Part shown: piece after piece, positions 9,587 through 60,508 of the stretch
Numbering within the stretch: the first letter of the stretch is position 1
How the letters are laid out: the number at the start of each line of letters is the position of its first letter
Source: Amphiscolops sp. MND2022
Taxonomy: Eukaryota
Direction: 5' to 3'
NCBI GenBank assembly: GCA_964187785.1
Contig: OZ076409.1
Coordinates: 62,746,001 to 62,810,000 of the forward strand
DNA: 64,000 nt
Notes under the pieces: model-generated
What the model was told of the DNA's origin: nothing
Database searches by the model: none
The model's input: only the letters and a program-made list of their open reading frames with translations
Program-made: the position numbers and the translations under genes

Positions 9587-9687
9587 TTTAGTCCGCCGGC
9601 CCGGACTAGAAGAAGAAGACGAAGACGTCTGTTGGTGGACAACTGAGAAATTGCCCAAGAAAAACAAGTGTCTGGATTCTCTGACTT

Positions 9688-9907
9688 TGTGTCTCTGGGA
9701 GATTAGGCTACTGTGTCTCTGTGAGATTGGGCTACTGTGTCTCTGGGAGATTGGGCTACTGTGTCTCTGGGAGATTGGGCTACTGTGTCTCTGGGAGATT
9801 GGGCTACTGTGTCTCCAGGAGATCGGGCTACTGTGTCTCTGGAAGACTGGGCTACTGTGTCTCTGGGAGATTGGGCTACCGTGTTTCTGGGAGATTGGGC
9901 TATTGTG
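9688..9907 (+). repeat. 24-bp minisatellite (~9 copies) in the BEL 5' leader
   Basis: Unit CTACTGTGTCTCTGGGAGATTGGG, head to tail, no spacers. Confidence 0.95.
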
Positions 9908-9942
9908 ACTTTTGGAACTGAGTTTAATCAAAAAGAAAAGAG

Positions 9943-12400: not shown

Positions 12401-15400
12401 AAGAAAATTGTTGAAAATGTCGATGAGGTCTCCAACCTGTCATCAATGAAAAGCAGTGGTGTGCTTCCAGTCATTCCAGTAATGATAGGGAGTGGGAGCA
12501 AAAGTCTGAAAACGTTTGCTTTGTGTGACGCTGGAGCAAGCCTATCCTTTGTGGACGAGAGCTTGATGAAAACGCTAAATCTGACGGGACAGCCAGTAGA
12601 TTTGAATGTTGCCGGGATTCACGGTACATCAGATATCAGTAGTAAACGACTTCGAGTAAAGATTGGAGATCAAAACGGAAGGATCAAAGAAGATATCATG
12701 GCCTATAGTCATCCCAACGTGAATGCAGGAAATCGAACGTACAACCTCAAGAAATTGGAAGAAACATATCCTCACTTGTCAGTTTTGAAGGATCCTACCA
12801 TCAACTCGGGAGAAGTGAAAGTCATCTTGGGCCAAGTTTGCTACCACTTGCATAGAGCAATCGACTATAGAAAGTGCGGAAACGCAAAGCCCTGAGCCGT
12901 GCGAACGAAATTGGGATGGATGCTCAGTGGACCGTTGCCCCAACATGAGACAGCAAAACTTGCCACTGAAAGCTTGGTTGCTGCAGATGTGGATCCATTA
13001 GCGGATCAAGTGAAAATTTGGTGGAGCATGGAATCGTATGCTCCCAACTGCAGCGCATCCGGAAGGTACAAGGAGGACGACAAGACGACAAGGCCCTCGA
13101 AATGCTCAAGGCAACCACAAAGTTCGATGGAGAGAGGTATGAGGTCGGACTACTTTGGAAAAATGCAAAGCCGCATTTGCAAATAACTACAGTTCAGCAG
13201 TAAGTCAACTGAAGTCTCTCGAGCGCCGACTGGAAAAGGATAAAAACTTGAAAGAACGCTACAAAGAGACAATTGATGTGGACGTACAAAAGGGATTTGT
13301 AAGAGTTCTGGACGAAGCAGAGCTTGAAAACACTAAATCAGACCTTCAGTGGTACCTTCCGCATATCCCTGTGCTGAACCCGAACAAGCCGGACAAAGTG
13401 AGACGAGTATGCAACGCTGCCTCAAAGTTCGGAGGCGTTTCACTAAACGATAATTTGATGGCCGGTCCAGACATCCTACAATCGCTCATTGGAATTATCT
13501 TCAGATTCAGGGAGAAACAAATTGCCTTGACAGCAGATGTCGAAGCGATGTTTCTCCAAGTGAAAGTACCCCCTGCGGATTGCAAAGTGCTCAAATTTTT
13601 GTGGAGAGAACACAACACCAAACCTATTTCCGTGTATGAATATGGAAGACACATTTTTGGAGCTAAGAGTTCGCCAACATGTGTCAACTATGCTTTGCAA
13701 CAAGTCGGACGAGACTGCAGAGATGAAAACGGGATGGTTGCAAATTTGATCAACAGAAAGTTCTATATGGACGATTTTGTGAAGTCAATTGCTTCAGAGG
13801 AAGAAGCTGGTGACGTGTACCGAAACTTGCGAAAATCCTTAGCGCATCGTGGATTTCAACTAATGAAATGTATTTCCAACTCCGAGAAAGTAATGCAAGA
13901 AATTTCTTCTGAAGATAGATCAGTCGCGCTCGGTAAAACTTTAGAAGCTGAACCCTTGGCGTCCTCTATATTAGGACTTCAATGGAATGTGAAGTCAGAT
14001 AGTCTTGAGATCTTCTGCGGTATGGGAAAAGAGGTGCCTGTCAAGATCACTCAGAGAATTGTTATAACACAAGTATCCTCTGTGTTTGACGCGTTGGGAT
14101 TGTTTTCCCCCTTCACAGTGAGAATGAGATTGTTGCTCAAAGGAATTTGGAAAAAGCATGGACAAGCGTGGAACGAAGAGTTATCTCCAGAAGACGAGAT
14201 GGCATTCAAGGATTGGACATCGGAGCTGAATCACATGAACGAAATGACTATCAGAAGAAAATATTTGTCGAAAATGCTGAAGTAATGGAATTGCATATTT
14301 TCTCCGATGCATCCCTGGACGTCATGTGCATAGTTGATTACCTTCGAGATCAACAAACCGGAGAGCTTGTCTATGTGGTAGGGAAATGCCGAGTAGCGCC
14401 AATGAAGCAACAATCAAAACCAAGATTAGAGCGTCAAGCAGCTATGTATGGGACCCGATTGAAACAGCTGATCGTAGATGAACACGACGTTGAAATTGAA
14501 CAAACCTTCTTTTGGACTGATTCGACAATTATGTTGCAATGGTTGCATGGAGCTGACAAGAAACAACCGGTGTTTGTTGCAAACAGAGTCGCTGAAATCC
14601 TTGACAGTTCAACCATTGATCAATGGAGACACGTCGAAGGAACCAAAAACCCTGCCGACATTGGAACAAGAGGGAAATCTGTTCTTGAACTAGAAAAGAG
14701 TGAGTGGTTCACAGGGCCGGCGTGGCTTCAACAGAAAGAAGATGATTGGCCACAAACCTCACCACAGTTGTTTCAGCAAAAAACAGAAGACATAGATCAA
14801 GTCTTTGAAGTCGTGTCAGAAGAAAAGGACATTGATTGGGAGAAATTCAGTTCGTTCAGACGAATGACCCGGATCTTCGCATATTGCCTTCGATTCAGTT
14901 CAAAAATCAAAGGAAGTGTAGTAAAGCCAGAAAAAATGCAGCAAGTGATCCGACTGTTACTAAGGAAAAGCCAGATGGAAAGCTTCGGTCAAACTTATCA
15001 AGCATTGGCCGCAGGTAAACCCATGGCTGCGTCTGATCACTTGAACAAACTGTCACCATTTATGGACGATCAGAACCTAATGCGATTAAAAGGACGTCTA
15101 CCTCATGCTGATGCGAGTTATGAAATGAAACATCCAATTTTGCTATCTGCGAAGCATCCTATAGTGAGGAAATTGATTGAAGATGCGCATGAAAGTAACT
15201 ACCATGAAGGAACGGAGTATGTCCGCAGCATTTTGCAGCAAAAATATTGGGTAATTGGACTCCGAAACGCGCTCAGAAATGTGAAGTGGAAGTGTGTTAA
15301 GTGCAGAAAGCAACAAGTTGGAGGAGTTCAACCTTTCATGGCAGACCTACCTAAAGAAAGATTGGAAGAAAGAGTTTTCCCTTTTGCCAACACTGGAGTA

Positions 15401-16284
15401 GACTACTTTGGACCATTCGAAGTGAGATTCATGAGGAAATCAATGAAACGATGGTGTTGCCTGTTCACGTGTTTAACAACAAGAACTGTGCATATTGAAG
15501 TCGTGCCCATCCTGGAAGCCGACGCATGTCTTGCTGCAATTACGAAATTCATCGCTCGAAGAGGAAAACCGAATATCATTCTAAGTGATAATGGAATAAA
15601 TTTCGTGGGCGCAGCTAGAGAAACGCGAGAATGGATAGAAGCTTGGAATCAATCAGATATTGAGCAGTCTTTGGCTCAAAAGCAAATAAAATGGAAGTTC
15701 AACCCCCAGGTGCGCCGCATTTTGGAGGTGATTGGGAGCGAATGGTCAGAAGCTGCAAGAAAGCTATGATGGCAATAGTGGGAAACAGAACACTGACAGG
15801 TGATGTATTATCCACAACAATGTATCTAGTTCAGCAGATATTGAATTCGAGACCTCTGACTAGTGTCAGTGATGATCCTGAAGATTTGGAAGCTTTGACT
15901 CCAAATCACTTCCTGCTAGGACGTGCAAGTCCAGCAACCCCATTCATTCCTGACGCTCAGCGTTATACCGATCTGAGAAAAGTATTCAGAGTATCACAAG
16001 CATACACAGACATAATTTGGAGCAGATGGAATAGAGAGTATTTGTCACAATGGAATGAGAAATCTAAATGGAATAAAGAAGAAGTTCGACAACTGGAAGT
16101 CAATGATTTGGTTTGGATAGTGGATGAAAATGTCGAAAGAGCACAATACAAGATAGGCGGAGTGTTCGAAACCTATCATGGATGGCGATGGGCGAGTGAG
16201 ATCAGCGCTTGTGAAAAGTGAAGATGGAAAACTGAAACAACCAGTAGTGAAACTGGCACCCATGTTCTACGAAAGTGTTTTTCA
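12401..16284 (+). pseudogene. pol: BEL pol (PR-RT-RNase H-IN), frameshifted
   Basis: ALCDAGAS; WYLPHIPVLNPNKPDKVRRV; FYMDD; LHIFSDAS..VAPMK; WTDS; GVDYFGP; SDNG; GGDWERMV; LTPNHFLLG. Confidence 0.95.
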
Positions 16285-31012: not shown

Positions 31013-32725
31013 GAACCAGTTTATAGAAAACTAGTTCGTAGAATCCAGTTTGTACAAAAGTGAAATCCAGTTGGTAGAATTTTTTTCTACAATTTTTTTC
31101 TACAGACTGGATTCTACAAATTGGTATTCTACAAATTGGTTAGGTCCACTTATGGATTACCAGTTTGTAGATTTCTGGAATAAAAGAAAAACAAAAGACC
31201 AAAAATGTAGGATTGAGGCAAGGTACAAAACGTGCCCCTTCAAACACGTAAAGTTCGAAAACATTCATAATGTGGCTTCAAATTTAACAATTCATCAGAA
31301 GAAAATCTTTTGTTTTAAAACAGAACAAGAAAAATACCATTCAGTAATTATTTCCTAGTGCACACACATATCAAGAGTCCGTTTTGAATATTAGGTTTCA
31401 TGTATATGTTGTAATATCTTATCTATACAGAATTACTGGTTTGTTGGAATCGGGACACGTATCGATGACTTTTCTCGTCACAAACTTCACAATTTTGAAA
31501 CAAGTTTACAAAAAACCAGTCTGTAGATTACAAGTTTGTAAAATTCGAGAACTGAAAAAAATCAATAAGACCAATAATGTAGGAATGGTGCAAAAAATAA
31601 AAGGGTGGCTGTATATAGGTCGAATTGTTCTGGTCGAAAGGACAGAGGTCGAACCTTTTGATCGAATTGCAGGGATCGAATGGAATGCGGTCAAACTTTA
31701 TCGTATTTGTTAACGGGCTCGGTCGCTTCGCTCCCTTCGCCAAGTAGCAACATTGAGGCATGGCCATATGGCACGTCGCTCCGCTTCGCTTCGCTCCTGC
31801 ATTCAGGGCACTAGGGGTATGTGAACATATCTGACTACGTTATAAAAATTTAGATCCGAGTTGTTTCGATCCCATTCAAAAATTTGGTATGTCGAACTGA
31901 GGACTAACTCTGATTTTCGATCCCGTTCCTTCGACCTGTTTCCGCCCACCCAAAATAAAACGGGCCTCGGATGTGTCCCTATTTCCTCTAGTGCACCGCG
32001 GCCCCTTGCGGCCGCTTATATTCTCATCTTGCTAAGCCAAGTCGAACAGGAGCAATGACCTATCGGGAATGGAGATCGCGAAGCGATCGTAGTAGGAGCT
32101 GGTCTTTGCGACGGTGAGGGCGAGTGTGCATACACCGGATTTGCCCCACATGTCATACGAAACGTTTCGGCAAATGTTTTTTGCCTGAGACGTTTCGGCA
32201 TATTTTACTTTGCCGAATCGTCCGCTGCCATGTTTTTGCCGAAACGTCCGGATTCCTGCCATATAGCCTTGCCTCAATGTTGCTACTTGGCGAAGGGAGC
32301 GAAGCGACCGAGCCATACAACAAATATGCTAACCTCTTCAATTATAATCTGAAACCAATCGCTGCTATGGAATTCTTTCGACGCTTTGTATAGCTTTGAT
32401 TTTTTAGACGGTTTGAATATTCTACGATTTGAATAGTCACCATATCAGGTCACTTGCTATAATATTTTTGGTCACTTGCTATAATCTATATATGACTGTA
32501 GCCTTTGACTGTATCAAGTGACCTCTAGCCTTTGAAAACGCTAAGTGTTTGAAAACCTTGATTCGATCTCCCTATCGTTGACTTTTTTACTTCGATCTCA
32601 GTGACAGTATGCATATTCGCGCAACTTCATTCCATCCAAACGCCCACCGCCGAATTTAATGATCCAGTTTGTAGAAAAAATTCTACAAACTGGACCACCT
32701 AGGACCAGTTTGTAGAATTCTACAA
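31013..32725 (-). mobile_element. CCAGTTTGTAG repeat family copy 3 (inverted) with nested inserts
   Basis: Reverse complement of the 19568-20540 and 21934-22580 blocks. Confidence 0.7.
31603..31951. mobile_element. 349-bp MITE (Mutator-like TSD), copy 1
   Basis: Ends GGGTGG...CCACCC; perfect 9-bp TSD AAAATAAAA; rich in TCGA motifs; second copy at 37774-38122. Confidence 0.9.
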
Positions 32726-32855: not shown

Positions 32856-32880
32856 TTGTTGTGATAAACTTATTAAATAG
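32856..32880 (+). other. Spliced-leader-like sequence at the LINE-A 5' end
   Basis: TTGTTGTGATAAACTTATTAAATAG, 24/25 identical to 38620-38644, ending 11 nt before the ATG. Confidence 0.7.
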
Positions 32881-32891
32881 TTTCAGACGCG

Positions 32892-33644
32892 ATGCCGACT
32901 ACTAGAACTGGCTCTCAATCAGACGAAGAGGGGTCCACCCACCTAATCGAATGTACTGGCAAGGGTCCCGACAAGGGAAAGGGATGCCAATCCTGGGTCC
33001 CCACATGGCTCCCGAAAAAGATCCACAAGGGTTTCATGGACCGCCCCTTCCTATGTGGCTTCTGTGCAGCAGCTGAGGTGGCCGACTTGCAGTCCAAACT
33101 TGCCAAAATTACAGAAAAGCCTCAAATCAGCGGAGAGCTGTCCAGTCTTTTCAATGCCGATTCAAACCAGCAATAAGGAAGGCGGGACAATGTCCGCATA
33201 TTTGGGGTGGAGGAGGCACCAGATGAGGACGTGTATCAGGCTGTGATCGATGTGGCAGAAAAGGCGGGATGTCAGGTATCCAGAGCGGACATCAGCATCT
33301 GCCATAGGGTTCCCAGCAGAAATGTGAAGCCTGGCCAAGGGCGCCCTATCATTGCAAAATTTGTAAGGAGACAGACCAAAATCGGGCTGATGACCAACAA
33401 AAAGAAGCTCAAGGATAGTGAAAATAAAATTTATATCAACGATGATCTCACGCTACTACGAGCAAGGTTGGCTAAGGCATTGAGGCAAAGACAAGATGTA
33501 ACTTCTGTGAACATGATTAACGAAAAAAATGTGGTGTATCAACAAAATGATACAAAAACTGTCTTTGATAGCCTCTTCAAATTATATGAATGGGATCCTG
33601 ATTTTGTCTACTCTGTATGCAAAAGTAGTCTACATTTTTGTTAG
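32892..33644 (+). pseudogene. LINE-A ORF1 with one premature stop
   Basis: PHD-like C..CQSWV..FLCGFC; QQ*GRRDNVRIFGVEE (TAA at 33174); DISICHRV..RPIIAKF..IYINDDLT. Confidence 0.85.
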
Positions 33645-36583
33645 GGGGCCCTCTAGCTTACAAATTGAAACGTAAAAAATCAAAGCCTAAACATAAAAAC
33701 AACTTAAAAGAACAAAGTGTTGAGAACGAATGGATTTTTCATTTGAACATAAGGTCTATCGACTACAATTTTGAAGAACTAGAAACGCATATAGATACTT
33801 TTCGTGAAAACAAACCGTGTATTATTTGCTTGTCCGAAACATGGATGACTGAATCCTCTGACAAAAATGCCTACGCACTAGAATCCTATGCACCTATGGA
33901 ATTTGATCCTGGTTCAACAAGAAATGAAGGTGTTGCAATATATGTCCATGAATCGCTGGCATTTGAACTTTTGGAGCTTAACATACAGAAAGATTCTATT
34001 CCTGATCTAAACTATACTGGAGTCAATTGTACCGCTAGGAATAAGGAAAAATTTACCGTTGTATGCTTATACAATTCGCCTTCCGTAAATAAACATGATT
34101 TCTTGGATCAGTTTGAGTTACTTCTTGAGTCTCTTAGTCAAATTAAGAACTACTATCTAATAGGCGATATTAATATTGACCTCTTGGAATGCAACCCTGT
34201 TGCAGATAGGTATCTGAAATTGTTGGAAATTCATGGTTGCGCCCAAGGAATCGAAGAACCAACCCGTGTAACGCTTGACTCAGAATCGTTAATCGATCAT
34301 ATAATCCATAATGACTACCAAAGACCTCTGGAATTTGGAGTTATCAAGACGTATATTACAGACCATTTTGCAACCTACGTTGATTTGAATATAAGTAAGT
34401 CTAAATCCATTCGTTCTCAACATTTTTTTAAGGATAGACCGTTTCTCCGGGACGGTAATGCAACAAATCTCTATCTAAATTACTTAAAACATTGCCTGGA
34501 ACATGTAGACTTAGGACAGAACATCAATGCATCTACTGAATCGTTTGCCAATGCAATATCGGAAGCAGTTAATGCTTTCACAGTTGAAAAACAATCAGAA
34601 CACCAAGATGCCGTAAGACCTTGGTTCACAAAGGAAGTAAAAAAGGCCTTAATTCGAAGAAATTGTAGTTTCCACAGATACAAGCGCTGTAAAACCTATC
34701 AGAACAAGCTACGCTACACAAGAGCTAGAAATAATGTGCACCAGCAGCTTCGTAAAAGCAAGCGCGAATACTACGATTCACGTCTGAATGGGCTTATCAA
34801 TAATCCTAAATGTTTCTACAAAGAACTAAACAAAATCACTGGTAAAGCAACAAAAAATTCCAACTTTGTTATCAAGAATGATAAAAATGAATTGATTACG
34901 GATGATATTGATGTGGCCGAATCGTTCAATGAAAAATTTGTTTCCATCAGTAAAACCTTAGCTGCTTCAATTGATAATGTCCCATTCACGACTTATGGTA
35001 TAAAAACTAATGAAAAATCACTATTTTTTTATCCAGCTGATGGCACTGAGATTTCGAGGATTATAAAAAATCTTAAGAACCATAAATCACCTGGTCTAGA
35101 TGGACTGACTGCAGAAATACTAAAAGTGAGTCACGATGTAATAGTTGAAAAATTAACTCATCTCGTGAATGAATCGCTAAAAAGTGGAACATTTCCTCAG
35201 GTTTTGAAAGCTGCGAGAGTGGTACCGATATACAAATCCGGCAAAAAATCTATACGTGAAAATTACAGACCCATATCTGTTTTATCAGTATTGAGCAAAA
35301 TATTTGAACGTGTTGTGCATGAACGATTATATAATTTCATGGATGAAAATAAGCTATTATACCCAAGACAATTTGGATTCAGGTCAAAACTGAGCCCCAT
35401 CCACGCTCTTTCCGATATTACAGAAATGATTAGGGATAATTCTAACCTCGATATTTCTTGTATTTTGCTTGATTTACAAAAAGCCTTCGATACAATAAAC
35501 CATGAATTTCTCTTGTATAAACTCGAAGCATACGGTGTCAGAGGGGTTTGTTTGGATTGGTTCACATCATATCTAAGTAAACGAAGTCAATGTGTTTCAA
35601 TTAACGGTAAAGTCTCAAAACCATTACTTATTGACTCCGGCATTCCTCAAGGATCTATTCTTGGCCCACTGCTCTTTATAATTTATGTAAATGATTTCCC
35701 GAACTCGTGTAAAAACATTATTCCGTTTCTCTTTGCGGATGATGCTAATTGCGTTTACGCGAGACCCAAAAATGAAACATCTACATTACAGGATGAAGTT
35801 GAACACATTCCTGGATGGATGGCTATGAATAAACTCAGTCAAAATATTCCTAAAACTGAATTGGTCCATTTTTTAAACTGCAAAGATGAAAGCATAGTAT
35901 TGAAAAATACTGAAATAACATGTACTGAATACGTTAAATATCTGGGTATCTTACTTGATAAAATTTTAACTTATGGTTTCCACGTCAAACGAGTACTGAA
36001 TAAATTAGCTAAACATGTATCCATTATTAACCGTCTAAGGCATTTCACCAGTAGTTCGGTAGTGATACGATATTATAAAACATACATGAAACCAATTATC
36101 CAATACGGACTCTTGATATATGGGTGCACGAGGAAGAGTGTACTGAATGATATATTTCTTGTTCAGAAAAAAATCCTCCGTATTACATACTTTAAAAACA
36201 GACGATATCCATCGGATGAATTGTTCAAAAGAAGCGAAATTATGAATGTTTTTGATCCATACGTATTTGAACTATTAAAATTCGCCGTGCGTTCTAGTAG
36301 AGAAAGTCAACTGCATAATATCAAGAGCGTATTTATCCACAAAAATTCACTTGTTTTTACTCGGAGTGTTTCTTCCAATATGTTTTATGTACCTGAAGCA
36401 CGAACGCAAGTTAGCCGACAATCACTAAAATATCGTGGAACTGTCTTACTGAATCATCTACTAAAAACGAAGCTATTACCTCGCAATTATGAATCTATCG
36501 GTGAAAATGAGACTAAAAGATTGATATTAAAAATTAAAAACAAAATAAGTAGCGAACGTCTGGCAGACATAGTTTTTTGTTGA
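33638..36583 (+). CDS. LINE-A ORF2: APE endonuclease + reverse transcriptase (981 codons, open)
   Basis: HLNIRS, CLSETW, GDINID, SLIDHI, TDH; NYRPIS, DLQKAFD, PQGSILGP, FADD, YLG. Confidence 0.95.
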   Translation: MLGGPLAYKLKRKKSKPKHKNNLKEQSVENEWIFHLNIRSIDYNFEELETHIDTFRENKPCIICLSETWMTESSDKNAYALESYAPMEFDPGSTRNEGVAIYVHESLAFELLELNIQKDSIPDLNYTGVNCTARNKEKFTVVCLYNSPSVNKHDFLDQFELLLESLSQIKNYYLIGDINIDLLECNPVADRYLKLLEIHGCAQGIEEPTRVTLDSESLIDHIIHNDYQRPLEFGVIKTYITDHFATYVDLNISKSKSIRSQHFFKDRPFLRDGNATNLYLNYLKHCLEHVDLGQNINASTESFANAISEAVNAFTVEKQSEHQDAVRPWFTKEVKKALIRRNCSFHRYKRCKTYQNKLRYTRARNNVHQQLRKSKREYYDSRLNGLINNPKCFYKELNKITGKATKNSNFVIKNDKNELITDDIDVAESFNEKFVSISKTLAASIDNVPFTTYGIKTNEKSLFFYPADGTEISRIIKNLKNHKSPGLDGLTAEILKVSHDVIVEKLTHLVNESLKSGTFPQVLKAARVVPIYKSGKKSIRENYRPISVLSVLSKIFERVVHERLYNFMDENKLLYPRQFGFRSKLSPIHALSDITEMIRDNSNLDISCILLDLQKAFDTINHEFLLYKLEAYGVRGVCLDWFTSYLSKRSQCVSINGKVSKPLLIDSGIPQGSILGPLLFIIYVNDFPNSCKNIIPFLFADDANCVYARPKNETSTLQDEVEHIPGWMAMNKLSQNIPKTELVHFLNCKDESIVLKNTEITCTEYVKYLGILLDKILTYGFHVKRVLNKLAKHVSIINRLRHFTSSSVVIRYYKTYMKPIIQYGLLIYGCTRKSVLNDIFLVQKKILRITYFKNRRYPSDELFKRSEIMNVFDPYVFELLKFAVRSSRESQLHNIKSVFIHKNSLVFTRSVSSNMFYVPEARTQVSRQSLKYRGTVLLNHLLKTKLLPRNYESIGENETKRLILKIKNKISSERLADIVFC

Positions 36584-36742
36584 TGCCCTTGTGTTTGGAG
36601 GGTCCTCCCCCGTTTAGGAATAATAACCTTTGGAGGGTCCCCTCTGGTGCTATATTTTTAATTGAACTGACTGCATTGTACTTAACTTCTGTACTGGTAC
36701 TATTGTTCAATTTTTTAAACATAGCATCAGAGAAAATTTAAT

Positions 36743-36774
<32 letters not shown>

Positions 36775-36776
36775 TG

Positions 36777-36971
36777 AAGTGTCTCTGGAACTAAGGGTTT
36801 ATTTAGTTGTTTGAATTTTCTTTTGTATACGTTCTCACGAGTATCTCCCTTTTATACGACGTAATACCTTTGGAGGGTCCCCCTGGTACTGTGTGCTTAT
36901 TTGGTTGTTGAGTGTTATTTGTATACGTTCATTTCTTCAGAGACGCATCAGGCTAAATTCAAATTCCTCTT
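36777..36971 (+). mobile_element. 3'-UTR relic of a related LINE
   Basis: Shares ACCTTTGGAGGGTCCCC and GCATCAG..AAATT motifs with the LINE-A 3' UTR. Confidence 0.55.
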
Positions 36972-37166
36972 GTGATAATCTGGTCTGCGATAGACTGACG
37001 ATACGTTTTGCTCAGTCCCCTGTTAGATATCAGGCGTCAGGTCCCTGGGTAACCTATTGAATCAATCTGAAGATACGGTGACAATTTGTTTGATGGTGAC
37101 GACAAAAGCAAGATAATTCACGTTTCATTTTATATTGATTTGTCCAGCTCTTTTGAAATGACAAAT

Positions 37167-38613
37167 TTCTCGGAGAAATATGACAAAACCGTGCGCGACG
37201 GACTTTCCAAAGTGTGTAACGTGAACTTCGACGATATTTCGAGTACTTAGCTGGCTCTGCCTGCTGAGATGGGTGGTCTTCGGGTTTCATCCGCATCATT
37301 ATTAGCACTTCCCGGCTTTCTGGCCTCAGCTTTTAGTGCGAGTAACTTTCTCACGGCGATTTTCTCGGAAACATTCTAAGATGTTTCGTTTACAAAAGCG
37401 CTTGAGAAGTGGTTGAGTTTGACGAATGAACAGGAAAGTCCTTTCGATGGAACTCAGAAAAATTGGACACAACTTGTCTACGTCAAAACTGCCCAAGGTT
37501 TGATTTCTAGAAAGGATGTTAAACGTTCGAAAATTTCTAACGCTCATCATGGCAAATTCGGGTCTCAATGGCTGAACGCCGTTCCTTGCAAGAACCTAGG
37601 CCTGAAATTTGATGATCAGCAGCATCGGTATTCGATTGGTTTACGTCTCGAAGCCAACATCTGTGTTCCGCTTACGTGCCACTGTGGTAAACGAGTTGAA
37701 CGGGACGGTTTACACGGTCTTTCTTGCACCAGGAGTGCTGGTCGCTTCTCACGTCATGCTACTCCCAATTCTCGGGTGGCCGTAAATAGGTCGAATTTTT
37801 CTGGTCGAAAGGACAGAGGTAGAACCTTTTGATCGAATTGCAGGGATCGAATGGAATGCGGTCGAATTTTATCGTGTTTGTTGTATGGCTCGGTCGCTTC
37901 GCTCCCTTCGCCAAGTAGCAACATTGAGGCATGGCCATATGGCACGTCGCTCCGCTTCGCTTCGCTCCTGCATTCAAGGCACTAGGGGTATGTGAACATA
38001 TCTGTCTACGTTATAAATATTTCGATCCGAGTTGTTTCGATCCCATTCAAAAATTGGGTATGTCGACCTGAGGACTAACTCTGATTTTCGATCCCGTTTC
38101 TTCGACCTACTTCCGCCCACCTCCAATGCTCTCATAAAGCAGACGTTGGGATCTCTCGACTTGCCTTCAATGCTCAAACCGCGTGGATTGTACCGAACTG
38201 ATGGCAAACGCCCAGACGGTGTTACCATGATTCCTTGGGAAATGGTTAAACAGCTCTTGTGGGATGTCACGGTTGTGGATGCTCTTGCACCCAGTCGCCT
38301 GAATCAAGGCTCTTTATGCAACCCGGGAACCACCGCCACCGAGGCTGAAGCGCGTAAAATTGAGAAGTATCGCGAATTAATAGACAATGGATACATTTTT
38401 CAGCCGATGGCCTTGGAAGTACAGGGTTCTTTAGGCGAGAGCAGTGAAATTTTCATCACGATTCTCTGTAAAATGCTCTGTCGTTCGCACGACGATCAAC
38501 GAGCTGACAGCTTTTTGAAGCAACGGATTTCAATGGCTCTTCAGATCGGCAATGCGGCCTGTGTTCTAGGAACTGTGAGCGACAGAGATGCGTTCGAAGA
38601 AATTTATTACATA
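37167..38613 (+). mobile_element. 5'-truncated CRE-like non-LTR element (RLE endonuclease), split by a MITE
   Basis: LALPAEMGGL; WLNAVP..LGL; CHCG..DGLHGLSC..RH zinc finger; RPDG..PW..WDVTV; KIEKY..FQPMALEVQG; QRISMALQIGNA. Confidence 0.9.
37774..38122. mobile_element. 349-bp MITE, copy 2
   Basis: TSD CCAATTCTC / CCAATGCTC (8/9). Removing it restores the CRE frame RHATPNSLIKQTL. Confidence 0.9.
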
Positions 38614-38644
38614 GCCTAATTGTTGTGATAAACTCATTAAATAG
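38614..38644 (+). other. Spliced-leader-like sequence at the LINE-B 5' end
   Basis: GCCTAATTGTTGTGATAAACTCATTAAATAG, ending 11 nt before ATG 38656. Confidence 0.75.
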
Positions 38645-38655
38645 TTTCCGGTGAT

Positions 38656-39429
38656 ATGACTACTGACGTAGACCCTGAACAACGATCAAGACTGGGTTCC
38701 TGTGACACCAACTACTATCCCACAATCTCTGAGTTGCTGGAAAGCAGCGATCAAGATGTACAGAAGTTTCTAGCCAAAACCAAAAAAGACACTCTAGTGT
38801 GCATTCTACGAGAAGCAATCGCTCAACTCAGGAACAAATCACTATGTCTGATAGCAAATGACATTGCTGAGATCAAAGTTACCCTAGAAAAAGCTGTATC
38901 TGAACAAACACTGTCGTCCCCACAGCCCATGACAGATCTGGACAACGAATCTTCAATTGCCCCAACAGTTAAGATTAGTACAAATTCTCTGAAATCTTCT
39001 GATATTCCTTATAGAAACAAAATTCGTGTCTCTTGTGTACCAGAGCAGAACAGTGACCTTAAAAAATTTGAAAGATCAATGGCGGATAAAGTTAAAGTTG
39101 AACAAATTCTTGAGAACCTGGGCGAGCCCGTTGAAATACGGGACGTTTACCGGAAAGGTGCTTTCAGAACAGATCGCAAAAGAACAATAATTGTTGAACT
39201 TAGTAACCCTTGGGATGTCCGAAAAGTAGTTGGGGCTGCCACCAAAAATAAATTTTTCAAGCAGAGTGGTTTTCTAGTTACATATGATCTCTCTCCCAAA
39301 GATCAAGAAATTGAGCAGAAATTGCTCGCCAAACGTTTTGAATTTTTGAAATCTGGAACAGACAAGAAACGACTCAAAATCCGAGGATTGAAACTCTATA
39401 AAGACGATGTTGAAGTCAAACTGGAGTGA
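38656..39429 (+). CDS. LINE-B ORF1 (257 aa)
   Basis: IRVSCVPE..DVYRKG..RTIIVEL..VTYDLS, typical ORF1 RRM-like layout. Confidence 0.85.
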   Translation: MTTDVDPEQRSRLGSCDTNYYPTISELLESSDQDVQKFLAKTKKDTLVCILREAIAQLRNKSLCLIANDIAEIKVTLEKAVSEQTLSSPQPMTDLDNESSIAPTVKISTNSLKSSDIPYRNKIRVSCVPEQNSDLKKFERSMADKVKVEQILENLGEPVEIRDVYRKGAFRTDRKRTIIVELSNPWDVRKVVGAATKNKFFKQSGFLVTYDLSPKDQEIEQKLLAKRFEFLKSGTDKKRLKIRGLKLYKDDVEVKLE

Positions 39430-42242
39430 CAATCAATTGAACTTTCTATTCTATACGGCAACATGCGGAGTCTCCTATCAGTTCAAAGGCGTCTTCTCTT
39501 TTTAAACCTTGCATTCTTTTACAACGCTGATATCATCTGTGCATCTGAAACTTGGTTTGACTGTAACGTTAAAAATCCATTTCTCGATACCAATTACGTT
39601 GTGGTTGCAAGAGCCGACCGCCAATATGGTTCCCATGGAGGTGTTCTTATTTTGGCCAAAAACTACCTTATGTGCAAAGAAATAAACCTCAATGTGATTT
39701 CGCTACTGCTTGTAGAGTTTGCACCATATCCTCCTCCATACTAATAGCTGTATTCTACAACCCACCTGAGAAAAGCCCATACAGGCTAACAGAAGCATGT
39801 ATTCTGAAAGTTTTTGATGTGTTGAGATGCCATGCAAAAACCCTTGATCAAATGATAATTTTTGGAGATTTCAATTACCCGAATATAGATTGGGAAAGTC
39901 TCACCGCTCCCGAATATGACGGTTCCGATTTTTGCTCTTATCTCTTCAAACATTCATTACTGCAGCTTGTTAGTGAACCCACACATAAATCAGGATCCCT
40001 CTTGGACTTAGTGATTACAAACACAAATAAAAGCCAGATCCGTGAAGTGAACAACAATTATTTCTCTGATCATCGTTGTATCTGTGTGACAACCAATGCC
40101 TCCTTGCTAAAATCTATCTCACCTATCACTGGTAAAGTCCAACAATACAGTTTCGCTCAGGCAATTGTTGAATCTCTTCGTCTATCCTTCGCACAAAACT
40201 TCTTCTCTTACGTTCTTCCACAGAATGAAACTTTTATTCGAAACTGGCTTTTTAATTTCTTCTCTATTCTTAATCAATTCATTCCTAAAAAACGTTCCCG
40301 CAGGCAACAATACCCCCCTTACTATTCCTCCCACAGCATTCACCTATTGAACCAGCTTCGAACTCTACAAAAGAGAAAGGACATGAATCGAGTAGAATCC
40401 AGTCTTCGAGAAAAACTATCAATCTCACTTGAATTAGATACAGTCGTCTTCTTAGAGGCATTCACATCTCACAACAAAACTGGTCTCAACATGTGCTACA
40501 AGCTAATAAAAAGCCTTTCAAATTGTACTGCCATTCCCCTGGAGGTGACATGGGACGAGGCCACAGCCAGTGGATACGATCAAGTTGCAAATTTGTTCAA
40601 TCTGTATTTTGTTTCAGTTTATAACAAATCCAGCAAACAGAAAGTATTCGAGCAACCTGTTGAAAACGGCCTTGATTCTTTGGAATTCACCCAGGAAGAA
40701 GTCTCCTCTGCATTGAAAAATGCAAGTAGTGGGAACGGTCCAGACAATATTCCCGGTAAACTCCTCCAATGCCTGGCAAATGAGCTTTCGCCTCATGTGA
40801 CCGTTTTATTCAACCACATTTTAAAAACTGGCATTTTTCCTAAACAATGGAAACAATCGTATGTTACCCCGCTCTATAAAAAAGGAAATCGAAATTGTGT
40901 TTCCTCCTATCGTCCAATCAGTAATCTCAGCAAGCTTTCTCTAGTCCTGGAGCGCTTAGTGTTCGATAAATTATATCAATTTGTTAAAAAAGCAATATCT
41001 TCTCAACAGTATGGCTTCATGAAACGCAAATCAACTACTTTACAACTTCTCGACTTTGTGATGGATGCATACCGCTGTAATGATATTAAAGAAATCAAGT
41101 ACACACTATACGTGGATTTTGCAAAGGCATTTGACAAAGTCTCCCATCCTATCCTGCTTGAAAAACTCCATCGCTTCGGAGTCTGTGGACATTTGTTACA
41201 ATTCTTCAGGTCTTACTTATCCGAAAGATACCAATGTGTGAAAATACACGGTCTGTTATCCTCAGCTCTGCCAATAACAAGTGGTGTACCCCAGGGCTCC
41301 ATTTTGGGCCCGCTACTGTTTATCATTTTTATAAATGACCTTCCTGATTCAATTCAATCGAGTTATCTTAGAATGTTTGCTGACGATACTAAAATATCAA
41401 ACACCAACATTTTAGCTCTAGAACAAGACGGAAAAAATCTTGTACACTGGGCCTCAAAGAACGAAATGATGTTCAATACTGACAAAACAGTCATTTTCTC
41501 AGTTCCCTACTGCGAAGCGGAAACATCGTTCAATGATTTCAGGCTATCAACATCTAAAGTCTGTAAAGTTCTTGGTCTCTATCTCACACCAGAACTATCT
41601 TGGGATGAACATTTAAAAAGAAAACTGGGCCATCTGAACAGCCTGTTGATTCGGCTCAAACGTGAATTACCAGTCTCGGTTGGATCCCAAGTTAAAATGG
41701 TTCTTTTTAAATCTTATTTTCTGTCTAGTTTACTCTATAATTCACAGATATGGTATCCCAGTCAAAAAATGCTTGACAAATTAGAATTGTTTCAGAAACG
41801 AGCAACTCAATGGATACTTGATATCAAAGACTATCACCAACGCCTTAGAGCTTTGAAGCTGTTTCCCATCTCGTATCAACTTCAGGTGGCTGACCTCACG
41901 TTCCTCAACAAGCTTCTCAACGAGCGCTATGAAGTCGATGTCTCAACTATTATTAATACCAAACGGCCCTCAGCCTATGACTTACGAATAAACAATCTGA
42001 GTCTCTTTGAAAAACCTGAAACCCGGTTAAATAAAACTGATGAGCAATTCCGAATACGTGCCTGTATCATGGCTAATCGCTTAGAAAAGGTACATGGAAT
42101 ATCAGTCTTCGAACCAACATCGACATTCAAATTGAAACTTGACGTTTTAGTCTCTAATCTGCTTTCGTGCTATAATACATTATCAAAATGTAACCAATTT
42201 TTAATATGCACATGTAAAAATTGTTGCCTGCTGAATCTTTAA
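39430..42242 (+). pseudogene. LINE-B ORF2 (APE + RT) with a single frameshift near 39690
   Basis: YGNMRS, CASETW, HGGV, GDFNYP, LLDLV, SDH; SYRPIS, DFAKAFD, PQGSILGP, FADD; Cys-rich end. Confidence 0.92.
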
Positions 42243-43524
42243 TTCGTCTTACCACTGTATATCGTATGGTAATTAAAGTCTTTTAGTAGTAGTAGTAGTA
42301 GTAGTAATTTTTTTGACCTTCATATCATAGCAGCTTTAAAAAAATTCTACCGGTCGACTGCATAGTGGCTAGTTTGAGTAGTTTGTTGGTTGCATTGCAC
42401 TTGATTGATGACGAAGATCCATGATATCTGATAGATGAGAAAAAAATTGAAATGAACATTGAGTACCATCTGTAGTGTTTGATGTGATTCCGAGTCAATT
42501 CTGAATATGGCATAGGTTTTTCAGGTAGGGAATGAAATTTCCCACGACAGATATCCAATCTATCTTGGAGCCTGTGTCTCTTCAGGTAAGTTAAAAAAAA
42601 TTGGGGACGGTAAGTAACGTTCAAAGGAAGCAATCGCGATGTGTCACGATTACATGTCTCCAGTGCCCCGAATTCAGGAGCGAAGCAGCGTCACGTGTCA
42701 TTACCAATCTAGCGACTTTTTTGGAAGGACGCGAATTTTCCCGGAACGTCGAGTCATACAACAATTATTCAGCAGTTTTTTCTAGATTAATTCGGATTTT
42801 ACTTTCAATGAACAGTATTGGTCGCTTTTTCCAACTTGCTTTGGACGTTATTTCCTCCAACTGAAAATTTAGTCAAGATTGTGACTTATGAAAACTCGTC
42901 CAACGCCTGTTTCAGGTTCAAACGTTCGTCGAATTGCATTCATTTGGTGAAAAAGGACATTCCATTCCAGATATAACGGAGCCCTGTGATGATGTCAGGC
43001 GACATATTGGCAAGTTGATTGAAGTTAGTGACTTATGAATGAATTTATTGTGGAATTTGACGCGCGACTTTGGATGAACTCTCGACTTTAAGAACTCTCG
43101 ACTCGCAAAAAGGGATTTAAAATATCAAATTTTGCTTTTGTTTTTACAATTATCATCCAGGAGATTCGGAAAGTTTGACCACGTATTTTGAAAACTGACC
43201 ATAATGTAAATATCATTAAAAGCGTGATTTCTGAAATCACTGTTGGTTTTGACACCCTTGCATTCATTTGCCTCGCAATCTGTTTTGGAAAATTTTCAAT
43301 AGCAGTAAAAGTTAAGTACACTTGCTCCTGCCTTCGTTTTTAGTATAGTGCCTTCGTATAGTGCCTTCGTTTTTATTAGCAGTTTCCACACCAACAGAAA
43401 ATTATCTACGTATACAAGTTTTCGGAGTAGTTTTTCAAGAAATAACCCCAGTAGATGTTGAGACCAAGCTTTCTTCGATTACAGTGAAGTCAGAGTCAAA
43501 ATTCACATGTTGGTTGAAGTAGTT

Positions 43525-53117: not shown

Positions 53118-54402
53118 ATGGCTCAACCTCAACTAACTCTCACTCCTTATTCAGGTACGGAAAAAGAATTTTCGCGAATTCGAGCATTTGCTCAGAAGCA
53201 TTCTTGCGGTCGCTGCGGTTCCAGCGAATCAACAGGCGAATTTTTTACAATTGCATCTTCGTGACGCAGCTCTACGTTATTTTCAAACTTTGCCCTTGGC
53301 AACCCGCCAAGATCTAGAACTTTCGATTGCTGCTTTACGAAATCATTTCTGTAATCCACAACTACAAGAAATTCACGTTTTGAAACTTGAAAATCTTAAA
53401 TTTGATGCCAAAACAGACAATCCGGAAAACTTCTTAGTTACATTACAAACTAAAGCGTTTAAAGCGTATCCGGATCCGAATCCACCAGCAGTCGCACCAA
53501 TTGATGCCGCAGCTCCCGACGCTGCTGTTGAACAAACACGCTTCGATCAGGATACTGCTCGACGTGCTGAACTAATACGATCCGCGCAAGAAGCTAGAGA
53601 ACATCAAATCCGACGACAATTTATAAAAAACATGCCGGGATGGCTACGGGCAAAGCTCCTAGAACAGCCGGAAAACACAACAGTGGACGATTTATGTATT
53701 TTCGCACGTAAACAATTGTCTATACATAATCTTTGCAAAACAGATGATTCTGTTATGGACGCCTTTAGTGAAATGGGTCCTTCAGTGACTGATACACTAG
53801 TAAATGCTTTAACAAAATTGAGTACAAGCCAAGAGGCAATGGACAGTCGATTAAATGAGATGTCCAAACAAATGGAAGAGCGTAATACTTCTTTTACGAA
53901 TCAGTTGGAAGCCTTTACTAAAAACCAAAACGAACAGTCTCAGAGAGGCTCGTATTCCCAAAACCGTGGTCAAAATTCTAACTACCGAGGCAATCGCGGT
54001 AATTACAGAGGTCGCTACCGAGGAAATAACAGAGGCTATCGTGGACGTTCAAATTATCGTGGAAACCGCGGTAATTATTACCAAAATTCCTCATCACAGT
54101 ACCAGTCGCCTCAAAATTTCAACAATAATTTCTCAAACACTCAGTTTGATACGAATTATAATCAGACGCAAACTTCGAATGCCCATTTTCAGAATCAAGG
54201 CCAACAAAATTCGAACTCTCAACAGCAAGCGACTTTTGAAGTATTCACTCCAGACTCTAACTATATGCCATATACGCAGCAGTCCTCGATTACGTGCCAC
54301 AAATGTGGTTATCCAAATCATCTGGCACCAAATTGCACTTTGAAAGGGCCAGCTCCACGTCGAGGGACACAAAATCCTTTCAATCAGACTCCAAAAAACT
54401 AA
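53118..54402 (+). CDS. gag: Gag (frameshift near 53170), RG/N/Q-rich region and CCHC knuckle
   Basis: MAQPQLTLTPYSGTEKE / FREFEHLLRSIL..LHLRDAALRYF; CHKCGYPNHLAPNC. Confidence 0.9.
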
Positions 54403-57400
54403 TAACGCAGCACAAGAATCCGCCCTCTGAACTTACAAACAATGTCCAGACTAAAAAGCCAGATACATGTAATGACGAACACTATAATGAATTGCCAGAA
54501 ATGTGCGCAGTACTCCCCTTAGAAGGAGAAAATTTGTTATATGTACGTTTAAAATTTACCTCTGACCTTAAGCGTAGAGCTTTAATTGATACGGGCTCTT
54601 GTGCTAATGCAATACCAGAATCAATTTTTTTAGAACTACAAACTAATATTCCAAACCAGATAGTCATGGAAGATCCTTCCTTCACCTCAGTACGGATGGC
54701 ATCAGGCCAGAAAGTTACTATCAAAAAACAAGCAAAAATATCTTTCAAAATTGGAACACATACGTTTCAAGATAGTTTTCTTATCTTGCCGACGATGAAT
54801 AGCGCTATCCTTGGAAATCCTTTTTTCAAGAAATATAACATAACAATTGATCCTCGGCACAACCTTTTACACTTGCCTGATTTAACGGTTCAACTTAACC
54901 AGATTCTTCCGGAAAAGGGACAAAAATCAAAATATACAAAAAAACTACCTAAACTACCGCTTTTACTCCAAAAAAAAGTATGCATCCCGCCTCAAACACA
55001 AGCACTTCTGGAGTGTCAGTTCGATGAAAACTTTGAAACTTATAAAAACTGCACGGGACTGGTAATTCCTAGTGATCGCTTAGAAGATAAAAGTGGCATT
55101 GTCCTCACGTCGTCACTCAGTACGATAAATGATGACGGAAAAGTCGTTCTTTCAGCAATCAATTTTTCTGATAACCCGATTACACTCAATAACAAAACAG
55201 AAATCGCTCATTTCGAAATTTTAAACGAAACCGAGGCAGATGACCTTATTGCCATTGATCCGACTTTGCTTTCGCTAGCAAAATTACGCAATCCGGATGA
55301 TTTTGCGGGAGAACTGAATCAATTGATTCAGGACTTCCATTTTCAGAAAATTGATACGCCAACAGGCCGCCCGCCGCCGGATTATTCAAAACTCTGGTTT
55401 CCAACGCCGGAGACTTGCACCGACTTTTCTACATTGACTCCTTTGCAACGCGAAATATATGATCAAATTTTACAGCTTCAACGGCTCGAAAAAATGAAAC
55501 CTACAGAAAATTCTCATGATCGGCGCGAATTTTTGAAAAAGTTTTCGTGGGACACTTGTGCCCTTAATAACGACCAAAAGGAGGAATTGGAAGAATTTTT
55601 GGTTGAATACCACGATGTGTTTGCCAAACACAGATTTGACGTGGGATATAATACCGAATTAAAGATCAAATTAACTCCTGAACACCCACTTCCTGTGCAT
55701 GTTCAAGGTCCGCCTACTCCAATCCACCTACGCGATGAACTCTTGGTTGAACTGGCATTATTACAATATTTTAACATTATAACAACTCTTTCACATTCCA
55801 AATATAGTAGTCCTATATTTGTTCATCGCAAAGCATCAGGAAAAATGAGAATTCTTATTGACTTGCGCCGTGTAAACCATTTGCTACGCCATGACTATGT
55901 AAATAGCAATTTTCCGATATCAAATATGACAGATGCCACAAATCATTTTGCGGGCAAGAAATTGTTTTGTAAATTGGATTGTTCACAAGCCTATCATTGT
56001 GTACAAATGGCTGATGACCTCTCAGTTCAGCTTTTGGCTTTTAACTTCGCCTCTCGTACTTTCGCCTACACATGCCTAGCACAAGGTCTCAACAAATCTG
56101 TCACGGGCTTTAGCTCTTTTGTCAAGCATTATTTAGATCCATGCTTAGCGGCAAATATCTGTACCCAATTCATGGATGATATTGCTGCAGGAGTTAATGA
56201 ATTTGATGAACTAATCCCAGTTTTACGAAAAATTTTTGATTGTCTTAGAACATCAGGCTTGAAACTTTCGGCACATAAATGTGAATTTGGAACGACCAAA
56301 ATTAATTACCTAGGCAGTACAATTACTCCGAAAGGTATCTCGCCGGAAAGTGAAAAAATTCAAAAATTTTTGGATCAGATTCGCATGCCAACCACAGTTA
56401 AACAAGTAAAACGTCTTATCGGATTTGTCCAGTTTTTTCGAAATTTTATGCCAAATCTTGGAGACAAATTGCTTCCTTTTTATCGCCTTCTTCGGAAAGA
56501 TACTACATTTACAATCACCAATGATCACCATGAATCGCTTGAAATTTTAAAATCTGACTTAAGTCGCGCTACTAATTTAACATTGAGATTGGCAAAACCG
56601 GGTCTCCAGTACGTAATTCTGTGTGATGCCAGCTACCATGGTACAGGTTTTGTACTCATGATTGAGGACTACCTTCAGGATCAGCATGGAAAAGAGAAAA
56701 AAACATACGCGCCGGTCTCTTTTGGCTCCCGCCTTTTTACGGCCACGCAATTGAAATTTTCTGTGTACTTCAAAGAATTTCTCGCCCTATATTTTGCCTT
56801 GGATCATTTCTCACATTTTATTTGGGGCGCCACTAAACCTGTCCTAATTCTTACAGATAACCGCAGTCTTACACAATTTTTCCAATCCAAAACTATACAT
56901 CCATCATTATGGAATTGTCTCGATCGAGTTCTGTCATTTAATATTCTTCTCGCGCATATTCCAGGTAAAGCTAACTCAGCGGCTGACTTTCTCTCCCGTA
57001 TGCAAACTGATCCTAGCCTGAGCATACAGATTAAACTAACGGATCATGTCCCTATACGCGAAATTGAAATTGAAACAGCTGCTAAAACTCCGGATGTTGC
57101 ATTATCAAATATTGAAGCCGTATCTTCTTTTCCCGATGAGCTGCCTGCCTTAGATCAAAATTTTCTTAATCAATTGAAAATACATGGTCTCTATGATCAA
57201 TTTTTAGCAAAACAGCCCGCGGATGTTCACGATGTCATAGTACATGGACTTTTTTCTTTGAAGCCAGTACCACAAATGAATTTGATCGCATCGAATGATT
57301 TCGAAGATGTTTTGAACGACCTACCAGATCGTATACATCCACTGAATTTGAAAGAAGAACAACGCAAAGATGAAGTAATTACGGAAGTTTTTACGTGGCT

Positions 57401-57848
57401 CCAGAATGGTAAACCAGATGAATCCCTTCATCTTCCGATTGCGCTACGTAAATACCGCAAACAATTCAATCGCCTAGAAGTTCGGGATGATATTCTATAT
57501 CGTCTTTTTTATGATGATTGCGGTAATGTCCAATATCGACAATTTTGCGTGCCAAAACATCTCTGGCGTGAAGTGGTTTTTCGTCTTCACAACTCGAAAA
57601 CTGTAGGCCATTTTGGAATAGCAAAGACTATAGCAGAATTTCGTAAAAGATTCTATTTTCCGAATTTTACTGAATTTTTACTGTCTACAGTCAAAAACTG
57701 CCTAAGCTGTCTCCAATTAAAGCGCGCGCCATCTAAATTTTTGAAACCTCCTTTGCAACCGCTATCGTCCGAAACGTCTTATCCGGGCGAAATGCTCCAG
57801 ATTGACTTGGTGGGGCCTCTTCAGTCCCCCATTATCGATATGTCTTAA
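54294..57848 (+). CDS. pol: Pol: protease, RT, RNase H, integrase zinc finger
   Basis: LIDTGS; YSSPIF..IDLRRVN; LDCSQAY; FMDD; CDASY..KEFLA..TDNRSL..ADFLSR; HNSKTVGHFG..CLSC. Frameshift near 57830. Confidence 0.95.
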   Translation: MPQMWLSKSSGTKLHFERASSTSRDTKSFQSDSKKLITQHKNPPSELTNNVQTKKPDTCNDEHYNELPEMCAVLPLEGENLLYVRLKFTSDLKRRALIDTGSCANAIPESIFLELQTNIPNQIVMEDPSFTSVRMASGQKVTIKKQAKISFKIGTHTFQDSFLILPTMNSAILGNPFFKKYNITIDPRHNLLHLPDLTVQLNQILPEKGQKSKYTKKLPKLPLLLQKKVCIPPQTQALLECQFDENFETYKNCTGLVIPSDRLEDKSGIVLTSSLSTINDDGKVVLSAINFSDNPITLNNKTEIAHFEILNETEADDLIAIDPTLLSLAKLRNPDDFAGELNQLIQDFHFQKIDTPTGRPPPDYSKLWFPTPETCTDFSTLTPLQREIYDQILQLQRLEKMKPTENSHDRREFLKKFSWDTCALNNDQKEELEEFLVEYHDVFAKHRFDVGYNTELKIKLTPEHPLPVHVQGPPTPIHLRDELLVELALLQYFNIITTLSHSKYSSPIFVHRKASGKMRILIDLRRVNHLLRHDYVNSNFPISNMTDATNHFAGKKLFCKLDCSQAYHCVQMADDLSVQLLAFNFASRTFAYTCLAQGLNKSVTGFSSFVKHYLDPCLAANICTQFMDDIAAGVNEFDELIPVLRKIFDCLRTSGLKLSAHKCEFGTTKINYLGSTITPKGISPESEKIQKFLDQIRMPTTVKQVKRLIGFVQFFRNFMPNLGDKLLPFYRLLRKDTTFTITNDHHESLEILKSDLSRATNLTLRLAKPGLQYVILCDASYHGTGFVLMIEDYLQDQHGKEKKTYAPVSFGSRLFTATQLKFSVYFKEFLALYFALDHFSHFIWGATKPVLILTDNRSLTQFFQSKTIHPSLWNCLDRVLSFNILLAHIPGKANSAADFLSRMQTDPSLSIQIKLTDHVPIREIEIETAAKTPDVALSNIEAVSSFPDELPALDQNFLNQLKIHGLYDQFLAKQPADVHDVIVHGLFSLKPVPQMNLIASNDFEDVLNDLPDRIHPLNLKEEQRKDEVITEVFTWLQNGKPDESLHLPIALRKYRKQFNRLEVRDDILYRLFYDDCGNVQYRQFCVPKHLWREVVFRLHNSKTVGHFGIAKTIAEFRKRFYFPNFTEFLLSTVKNCLSCLQLKRAPSKFLKPPLQPLSSETSYPGEMLQIDLVGPLQSPIIDMS
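54393..54399 (+). promoter_or_regulatory. -1 ribosomal frameshift slippery heptamer A AAA AAC
   Basis: Sits immediately before the gag TAA; pol is in the -1 frame. Confidence 0.8.
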
Positions 57849-59895: not shown

Positions 59896-60508
59896 CTCTT
59901 GCCTATCCCTATCGTTTAGCCGCCGCTCCGCCACAAAAACAACCAATTTTTCTTCTCACTTTGCATCAGCCAAATTAACTGCCTCAATGCGACCTTTAAA
60001 TCACAATTTCTCAAGGTCAAAATGTCAGATCGCCAAACCGTACGGGTGAAAGTCTTAGAATTTTATGTAGATTCGATTTCTGACGTCAAATTCTCACTCG
60101 GAGACAAAAAATTTTTTCCGCCTCTTAGTCCGCCATTTTGAATTTTCGCGAAATTGAGTAATTTTCACCAATTTTTTTACATTTTCACATGCTATCTTCT
60201 TTCTGTGCCCCCTACTTCGCTTCCAACACCTTTCCACATATCCAAGCAGCACAATTTCTCACTTCAAAGTGAATTATTTCTTTCTTTTGATGAAATATGT
60301 ACACAATTGATGACGATAATGATCCATTTTCTGTCCGATGAATGAGTTCTACTTTTGAAAGTCGTTTTTACGCCCATCGAGGACGGGCATTTTTCGCCAT
60401 TCGGTCCTCCGGTTCTCCCGGACGTTTATAGGACTTATCTTTCCTATCAACACGACTACAGTTTGACTTCCTCTGACAATTTTGCCCCATTGATTTAGTA
60501 AACAATAC

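Follow-up and report, generated by a model that had tools for sequence, protein, structure and literature searches.

The window, by which we mean the whole 64,000-nucleotide stretch of Amphiscolops sp. MND2022 DNA that was analysed (assembly GCA_964187785.1, contig OZ076409.1, positions 62,746,001 to 62,810,000), carries two two-ORF retrotransposons with APE and RT domains on its forward strand, LINE-A at 32856-36775 and LINE-B at 38613-42304. Both are headed by the 25-mer TTGTTGTGATAAACTYATTAAATAG, found at 32856-32880 and 38620-38644; no further site in the window matches it when three or fewer differences (up to 3) are allowed, and none of 100 shuffled versions of the window contained any match to it. 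Together with the TTTC that follows, the two copies are identical at 28/29 nt, and in each the terminal AG is separated by 11 nt from the ORF1 ATG (32892 and 38656); the shared motif and its spacing, both reported in a preliminary description of this DNA, are real. With only 11 nt between the motif and ORF1, neither window element has a 5' UTR of its own that could hold a conventional promoter; some other families headed by the motif have longer leaders. The same description called the LINEs unrelated, which holds for the tails, (CTTT)8 in LINE-A and (TAG)7 in LINE-B, and for the ORF1s, where comparison found no similarity (E 0.39-2.5), but not for the ORF2s, which both encode APE and RT and are 28% identical, so that the two LINEs are, to judge from these alignments, distant relatives.

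The motif in LINE-A (32856..32880) is a 5'-truncated copy of what is identified below as the host spliced leader (SL); it spans SL nt 8-32, has the proximal AG as its last two bases and is identical to the SL exon of the genomic SL arrays. It is followed by TTTCAG (32881..32886), the distal (downstream) acceptor, by ORF1 (32892..33644), by ORF2 (33629..36583, APE + RT, 984 aa stop to stop) and by a 3' UTR (36584..36775) whose terminal (CTTT)8 at 36744-36775 is the family 3' end. LINE-B begins with all 32 nt of the SL (38613..38644), with T23C at 38635, and its leader TTTCCGGTGAT (38645..38655), a form common to several related families, has acceptor-like pyrimidines and no downstream AG. ORF1 (38656..39429, 257 aa), ORF2 (39430..42242, APE + RT) and the (TAG)7 tail that forms the family 3' end (42284..42304) complete the element. 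Both window copies are damaged: ORF1 of LINE-A, 250 aa in sibling L051, has a premature TAA at 33174-33176, and ORF2 of LINE-B has a 1-nt frameshift near 39695 relative to copy L244.

An ORF1, an ORF2 with APE and RT, a simple-repeat 3' tail and dispersed 5'-truncated copies place both elements among APE-type non-LTR retrotransposons. Pfam finds a PHD-type ORF1 in relatives, which together with the microsatellite tails presumably fits the CR1 group (CR1/L2 and kin).

LINE-B lies in the 3' end of a forward-strand remnant (37160..38612, resuming at about 42305) that carries a MITE-like insert and that appears from its motifs to be CRE-like (RLE-type). The first 9 nt of the LINE-B SL, AGCCTAATT, match the empty target site as well; LINE-B landed in the remnant through this microhomology, the nonamer being common to the remnant and the SL start. 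The remnant was also considered as an SL-targeting element and rejected, its own normal 3' end reading …ACATATAGCCTAATTTTTTTGACC. Elsewhere in the window, BEL/Pao-type and Gypsy-like LTR retrotransposon ORF sets lie at 9928-16221 and 53137-60049, a 24-nt tandem repeat at 9640-9940, and an abundant MITE-like repeat of about 350 nt at 37774-38120 (inside the CRE-like remnant) and 31603-31902.

The shared motif and the SL RNA genes

The preliminary description had tentatively identified the motif as the SL of the acoel Symsagittifera, and it does match the published leader: passages of the S. roscoffensis G3 genome paper give the same sequence as the trans-splicing leader and report 30.2% of genes as trans-spliced (PMC9911081). 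The exact 25-mer occurs 1911 times in the present genome, many of these in 904-bp tandem units that alternate with 5S rRNA. Each unit reads SL exon|GTAAGT, followed by stem-loops and then by AATTTTTGA, which we take to be the Sm site. These units are SL RNA genes, in the arrangement (motif, GT, Sm site) that the preliminary description had foreseen. Identity to the S. roscoffensis leader and the presence of SL RNA genes strongly support the motif as the host SL. CTAAT occupies nt 4-8 of the SL, and no AG lies between nt 2 and the terminal one. Some array units (L293/L297, e.g. G000:C1:16256664) have an insert of about 115-130 nt in the SL intron after GTAAGTATTCCAACC.

Dispersed SL-headed LINEs

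Searches for dispersed SL copies gave 518 matches followed by a non-G base and 43 followed by G plus non-T; both searches used a filter that dropped roughly a fifth, and we therefore put the number of dispersed copies at about 600-700. The association with LINEs, which the preliminary description had seen at two loci, extends across the genome. We sampled 82 copies, namely 80 regions from the first 100 listed, after omission of 14 large-family repeats and 4 tandem duplicates, plus the two window copies. The SL was complete in 63 of the 82, with a 5' boundary sharp at SL +1 and unrelated flanks. Because A precedes GCCTAA in 55 of these 63 (with mixed bases at -2 to -6) and also in the SL genes, the SL most likely starts at this A, one base earlier than read before. 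A sense ORF2 match lay within 2.5 kb in 63/82; Pfam finds further LINEs in the remainder, and five copies stayed unclassified as to carrier.

The 189 dispersed copies fetched in all fall into 52 leader clusters. RT identity across the SL-headed lineages is 23-48%, with the lowest value, 23%, among 13 representatives, and a wider RT tree of 37 rows resolves several deep lineages. One SL-carrying element is RLE-type, with a single ORF and apparently CRE-like motifs. The commonest SL version is identical across these lineages and in the RLE element.

Six family-anchored searches, with the anchor placed just behind the leader and thus blind to the SL, found it in 174/177 matches counted by eye (49/50, 41/41, 30/31, 22/22 with two degenerate, 7/7 and 25/26 per family). 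An SL-blind control used 40 of 150 APE-domain matches (Pfam), picked for long open frames and omitting eight already known SL-headed copies; of its 12 families, 9 are SL-headed, 2 have a common 5' end that lacks the SL, and 1 could not be assigned. SL heading of LINE families is common but not universal. The SL-less members of SL families are 5'-truncated, with breaks at scattered points. The two families with shared SL-less 5' ends, L225/L232 and L233/L234, have a C-terminal CCHC motif and offer a natural contrast group.

Classical target-site duplications were looked for and no regular one was found, although some copies have short overlaps; empty sites were used instead to define insertions. 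Among 61 tail-defined full-length copies, empty sites were found for 11 in the fetched DNA. The SL was present in 0/11 empty sites, and an SL intron followed 0/61 LINE tails; the SL is therefore part of the insertion and not its target, and these LINEs do not behave as SL-gene-targeting elements of the NeSL or CRE/SLACS/CZAR type. Directly upstream of the full SL, the 5' junctions of many loci hold partial SL repeats in scrambled order, with GTGATA as a frequent end point; these are likely template jumps during integration.

Trimmed copies and leader architecture

In 7/50 LINE-A family matches (6 loci) TTTCAG is exactly missing and the SL is joined straight to ACGCG. In a tree of 45 of the 52 LINE-A copies, short ones and same-flank duplicates having been dropped, the trimmed copies turn up in each of the three age classes and do not group together as a clade. 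A hairpin family lacks exactly 27 nt up to TTTTCAG in 6/31 matches (5 loci). In a third family 1/22 is trimmed, and this copy, L162, lies at branch length 0 from the unspliced L156/L169 over 1.5 kb; further trimmed and untrimmed pairs came from other searches. One TTTCCGG-less copy (1/41) was not counted as splicing, as it may be a microhomology deletion. A 6-nt removal is too short for cis-splicing, and the recurrence of exact joins after an AG is best explained by RNA that was first trans-spliced and then retrotransposed.

We regard it as virtually certain that the retrotransposed RNA includes the SL and that such RNAs undergo trans-splicing. The central proposal of the preliminary description, retrotransposition of SL-trans-spliced LINE RNA, is strongly supported by the position of the SL inside the insertion and by the exact joins behind TTTCAG. 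Trimmed RNAs are retrotransposed as a minority, and trimmed copies arose independently. The preliminary description had also named the TTTCAG of LINE-A as an alternative acceptor. The site is used (6 loci), but its use trims the element and cannot maintain the common form: splicing at TTTCAG only would erase that form in one round, yet most copies keep TTTCAG, which leaves either a start at SL +1 or re-splicing at the SL's own AG. Stacking in the dinoflagellate style, through the first AG of the SL, was considered and rejected, with one true tandem junction genome-wide. Contigs from four small-share metatranscriptomes were sparse, with six short ones that contained no joints; one contig, from another family, spans flank, SL and leader and could be DNA.

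Pyrimidines are concentrated directly behind the AG. Of the 52 leader clusters, which are related and not fully independent, 32 begin with YYYY, against a background of 6.7%, and 25 have TTTC. Three leader types are seen: TTTC(A/C)N, a long pyrimidine tract, and an anti-SL stem followed by TTTCAG. Families without a downstream AG still have pyrimidines after the AG (TTTCCGG, TTTCAT, TTTCCT), and one SL-headed family is entirely without TTTC. An anti-SL stem is predicted in 8/44 leaders tested (p <=0.03), with the SL 3' half paired, mostly including the AG; the window leaders have none (p 0.77 and 0.66). The stems, of 12-19 bp, occur in L031, L055, L065, L074, L084, L086, L096 and L109 and resemble stem I of the SL RNA, and in one family the stem is capped by a C(UGCG)G tetraloop. 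At L109:632-4551 a 1013-aa single-ORF RLE-type (CRE-like) element has the SL, an anti-SL stem and TTCAG at its head, and its leader GCTGTTTAATAAGTCAACTTCAG is nearly equal to that of the APE element L086, a likeness that suggests leader swapping or convergence.

No family with at least 3 copies has a fixed SL substitution. A count by eye put the SL allele T25A at 13 SL-gene and 56 dispersed copies, compared with 9 for T25C and 5 for T25G; T25A is present also in intact tandem SL genes and is non-monophyletic within three families. By a rough calculation the highest context mutation rate would give about 3.5 cases, and 12 were seen (P ~3e-4). Its share is about 9% of dispersed copies versus about 1% of present SL genes, and it is commoner in older copies. 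The T>A rate in this context is raised threefold, and a mutation hot spot is a possible source of the excess. Slippage was rejected as a source, repeat-perfecting slippage being low in LINE bodies (3/1330). Family-fixed T25A, which would favour inheritance, was also rejected, as the two suspect families are polymorphic (4/22 and 4 or 5/26); in two small groups, L283/L284 and L286/L287, both known members have T25A. Two LINE-B copies of the older subfamily share a change of AG|T to AA|A over the junction, and neither is descended from the other as it stands.

Maintenance of the SL and competing explanations

The preliminary description proposed that these LINEs have no promoter, ride on read-through transcription and receive their 5' end by trans-splicing. 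We infer that this is probably so: SL-headed LINEs would be promoterless, and read-through RNA would, in each cycle, undergo renewed trans-splicing at the terminal AG of the copied SL. The read-through transcript would include the copied SL, which could supply the branch-point-like CTAAT and, down to its last two bases, no competing AG; the spliceosome would then trans-splice a fresh leader at the proximal AG, replacing the old one every cycle. Use of the proximal AG would give back the complete element, capped and translatable and with its 5' end defined, whereas the distal AG yields a trimmed one. Because everything upstream of the AG would be discarded in each round, sequence that strengthens the acceptor could be inherited only downstream of it, which would explain the three leader types.

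The acceptor-like sequence right after the AG, YYYY in 32/52 clusters, lends indirect support to re-splicing at the SL's own AG, as do the scatter of an SL-gene allele over families and the lack of fixed SL changes in multi-copy families. Part of the text of Ragle et al. 2015 (PMC4484395) describes a comparable choice in C. elegans, where germline splicing favours a weak AG that lies 6 nt ahead of TTTCAG; that case concerns cis-splicing of nematode host introns and not trans-splicing or acoels. Several observations weigh against re-splicing. The AG loss shared by the two LINE-B siblings suggests that, unless recurrent, a leader was inherited without its AG. The proximal AG has no upstream pyrimidine tract and must usually beat a perfect TTTCAG, the predicted anti-SL stems should hide it, and one family has no TTTC at all. 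Finally, T25A is rarer in present SL genes than in dispersed copies, and the hot spot may account for it.

A wider version of re-splicing, to which we give an even chance, is that most LINE lineages here, of both APE and RLE types, have given up promoters for a self-renewing cycle with the SL as its own acceptor. Exon-side signals (TTTC, pyrimidine tracts, and an anti-SL stem that mimics SL RNA and was swapped between unrelated clades) would direct the germline spliceosome towards the proximal AG and divide the RNA between full-length template and trimmed mRNA. Mixtures of re-splicing with the mechanisms that follow are possible.

The strongest competitor, which we regard as unlikely though worth keeping in view, is that LINEs acquired the SL on one or a few occasions and use it as an internal promoter or initiator, with transcription starting at SL +1 and trans-splicing at TTTCAG a secondary event that yields mRNA and trimmed copies. 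It accounts for the sharp +1 boundary, has no need of a weak acceptor that wins, and accommodates both the AG loss common to the two LINE-B siblings and the mimicry of SL RNA stem I by the anti-SL stems. Ascaris SL genes are reported to have an exon-internal promoter element, although the literature search found no such account. The SL as promoter has moreover been proposed for dinoflagellate retrogenes, in part of the text of PMC5585692. Inheritance of a captured SL is, however, hard to square with the lack of any fixed SL substitution in families of at least 3 copies over 23-48% RT identity, and with T25A being scattered and not inherited, and the acceptor-like pyrimidines that follow the AG in families without a downstream AG would go unexplained by a promoter.

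It is improbable that read-through RNA is cut, or reverse transcription halted, at SL +1 by structure or a nuclease, with the SL inherited and neither promoter nor acceptor. A stable SL/anti-SL stem in some families and the shared AG loss in LINE-B are consistent with such processing, but most leaders, including both window ones, are stemless, the stem spans the SL 3' half and not +1, and SL invariance across clades is left unexplained. Largely refuted, and very improbable indeed, is the SL as target site or as the product of a template switch to SL RNA at integration: SL-exon-targeting elements do exist in the SL arrays of this genome and U6-L1 chimeras are a precedent for template switching, but the flanks are unrelated, empty sites and tails speak against a target as given above, and switching would join the SL to variable points, whereas 5'-truncated copies break at scattered places without SL and junctions fall exactly at the SL exon end.

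Related systems

DinoSL-relict retrogenes in dinoflagellates were reportedly described by Slamovits & Keeling in 2008. Part of the text of Song et al. 2017 (PMC5585692) likewise places an SL at the 5' end of retroposed copies and proposes a relict-internal AG as the next-round acceptor; the relicts it describes are degenerate, sit on host genes and often number several per gene. The acoel copies have the SL at the retroposed 5' end and, one tandem junction aside, no stacked relicts: their carriers are mostly autonomous LINEs (63/82) with one exact SL, seemingly replaced and not stacked. SLs have also been noted with transposable elements in other animals, namely on CR1 Iso-Seq reads in Hydra (PMC12220107 and preprint) and with transcripts or loci in parasitic flatworms (Calvelo et al. 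2025, PMC12582326) and Heterodera (PMC6362198). The relevant passages of these reports are brief; they give partial leaders beside LINE and LTR loci, with integrated trans-spliced RNA as the suggested origin, and describe no constant SL 5' terminus, two competing acceptors or leader architecture. NeSL-1 and CRE1/SLACS/CZAR, according to parts of PMC4640811, are non-LTR elements that likewise draw on the SL system to be expressed; their insertion sites are SL genes, whereas the acoel elements are dispersed, carry the SL along and, in the case of the two in the window, encode APE.

Full-text literature searches, which reach neither subscription journals nor Repbase reports, turned up no account of acoel LINE families with an SL at their head; an earlier note in those sources is possible. 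SL-tagged retrocopies in dinoflagellates and passing remarks in flatworms and Hydra were already known, and new here are the animal host, the breadth over LINE clades, replacement in place of stacking, dated second-acceptor products and the leader architecture.

Every LINE has to regenerate its 5' end in each cycle, and the known means are an internal promoter, a ribozyme or site-specific insertion downstream of a host promoter. R2 is co-transcribed with rRNA and its 5' end is made by a ribozyme; R2 and Drosophila HeT-A are promoterless LINEs in which processing of read-through RNA defines the 5' end, a parallel to what is proposed for the acoel LINEs. For the acoel LINEs the processing would be host spliceosomal trans-splicing, with no specific target needed. 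If true, renewal of the SL by trans-splicing would be a further, target-independent means, adopted by dozens of LINE lineages in one animal. Selfish elements would then have trans-splicing at their disposal, a point of interest for the origin and persistence of SL systems. The copies in the genome would also form a fossil record of germline choice between proximal and distal AG and of SL allele turnover.

The SL arrays themselves hold a different set of elements. SL RNA genes in L291-L296 (G000:C1:16226001-16286000) are interrupted by site-specific insertions: 14/22 SL starts run into foreign sequence after SL nt 14-18, and each insert stops right before a complete SL. The literature search found no report of an SL-exon-specific family with companions of this kind, and the inserts possibly represent such an undescribed family with its non-autonomous companions. 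They include at least 2 APE+RT families, with an apparently L1/Tx1-like ORF2, and several RT-less elements of 2-3 kb with a single ORF of 390-550 aa and no Pfam match.
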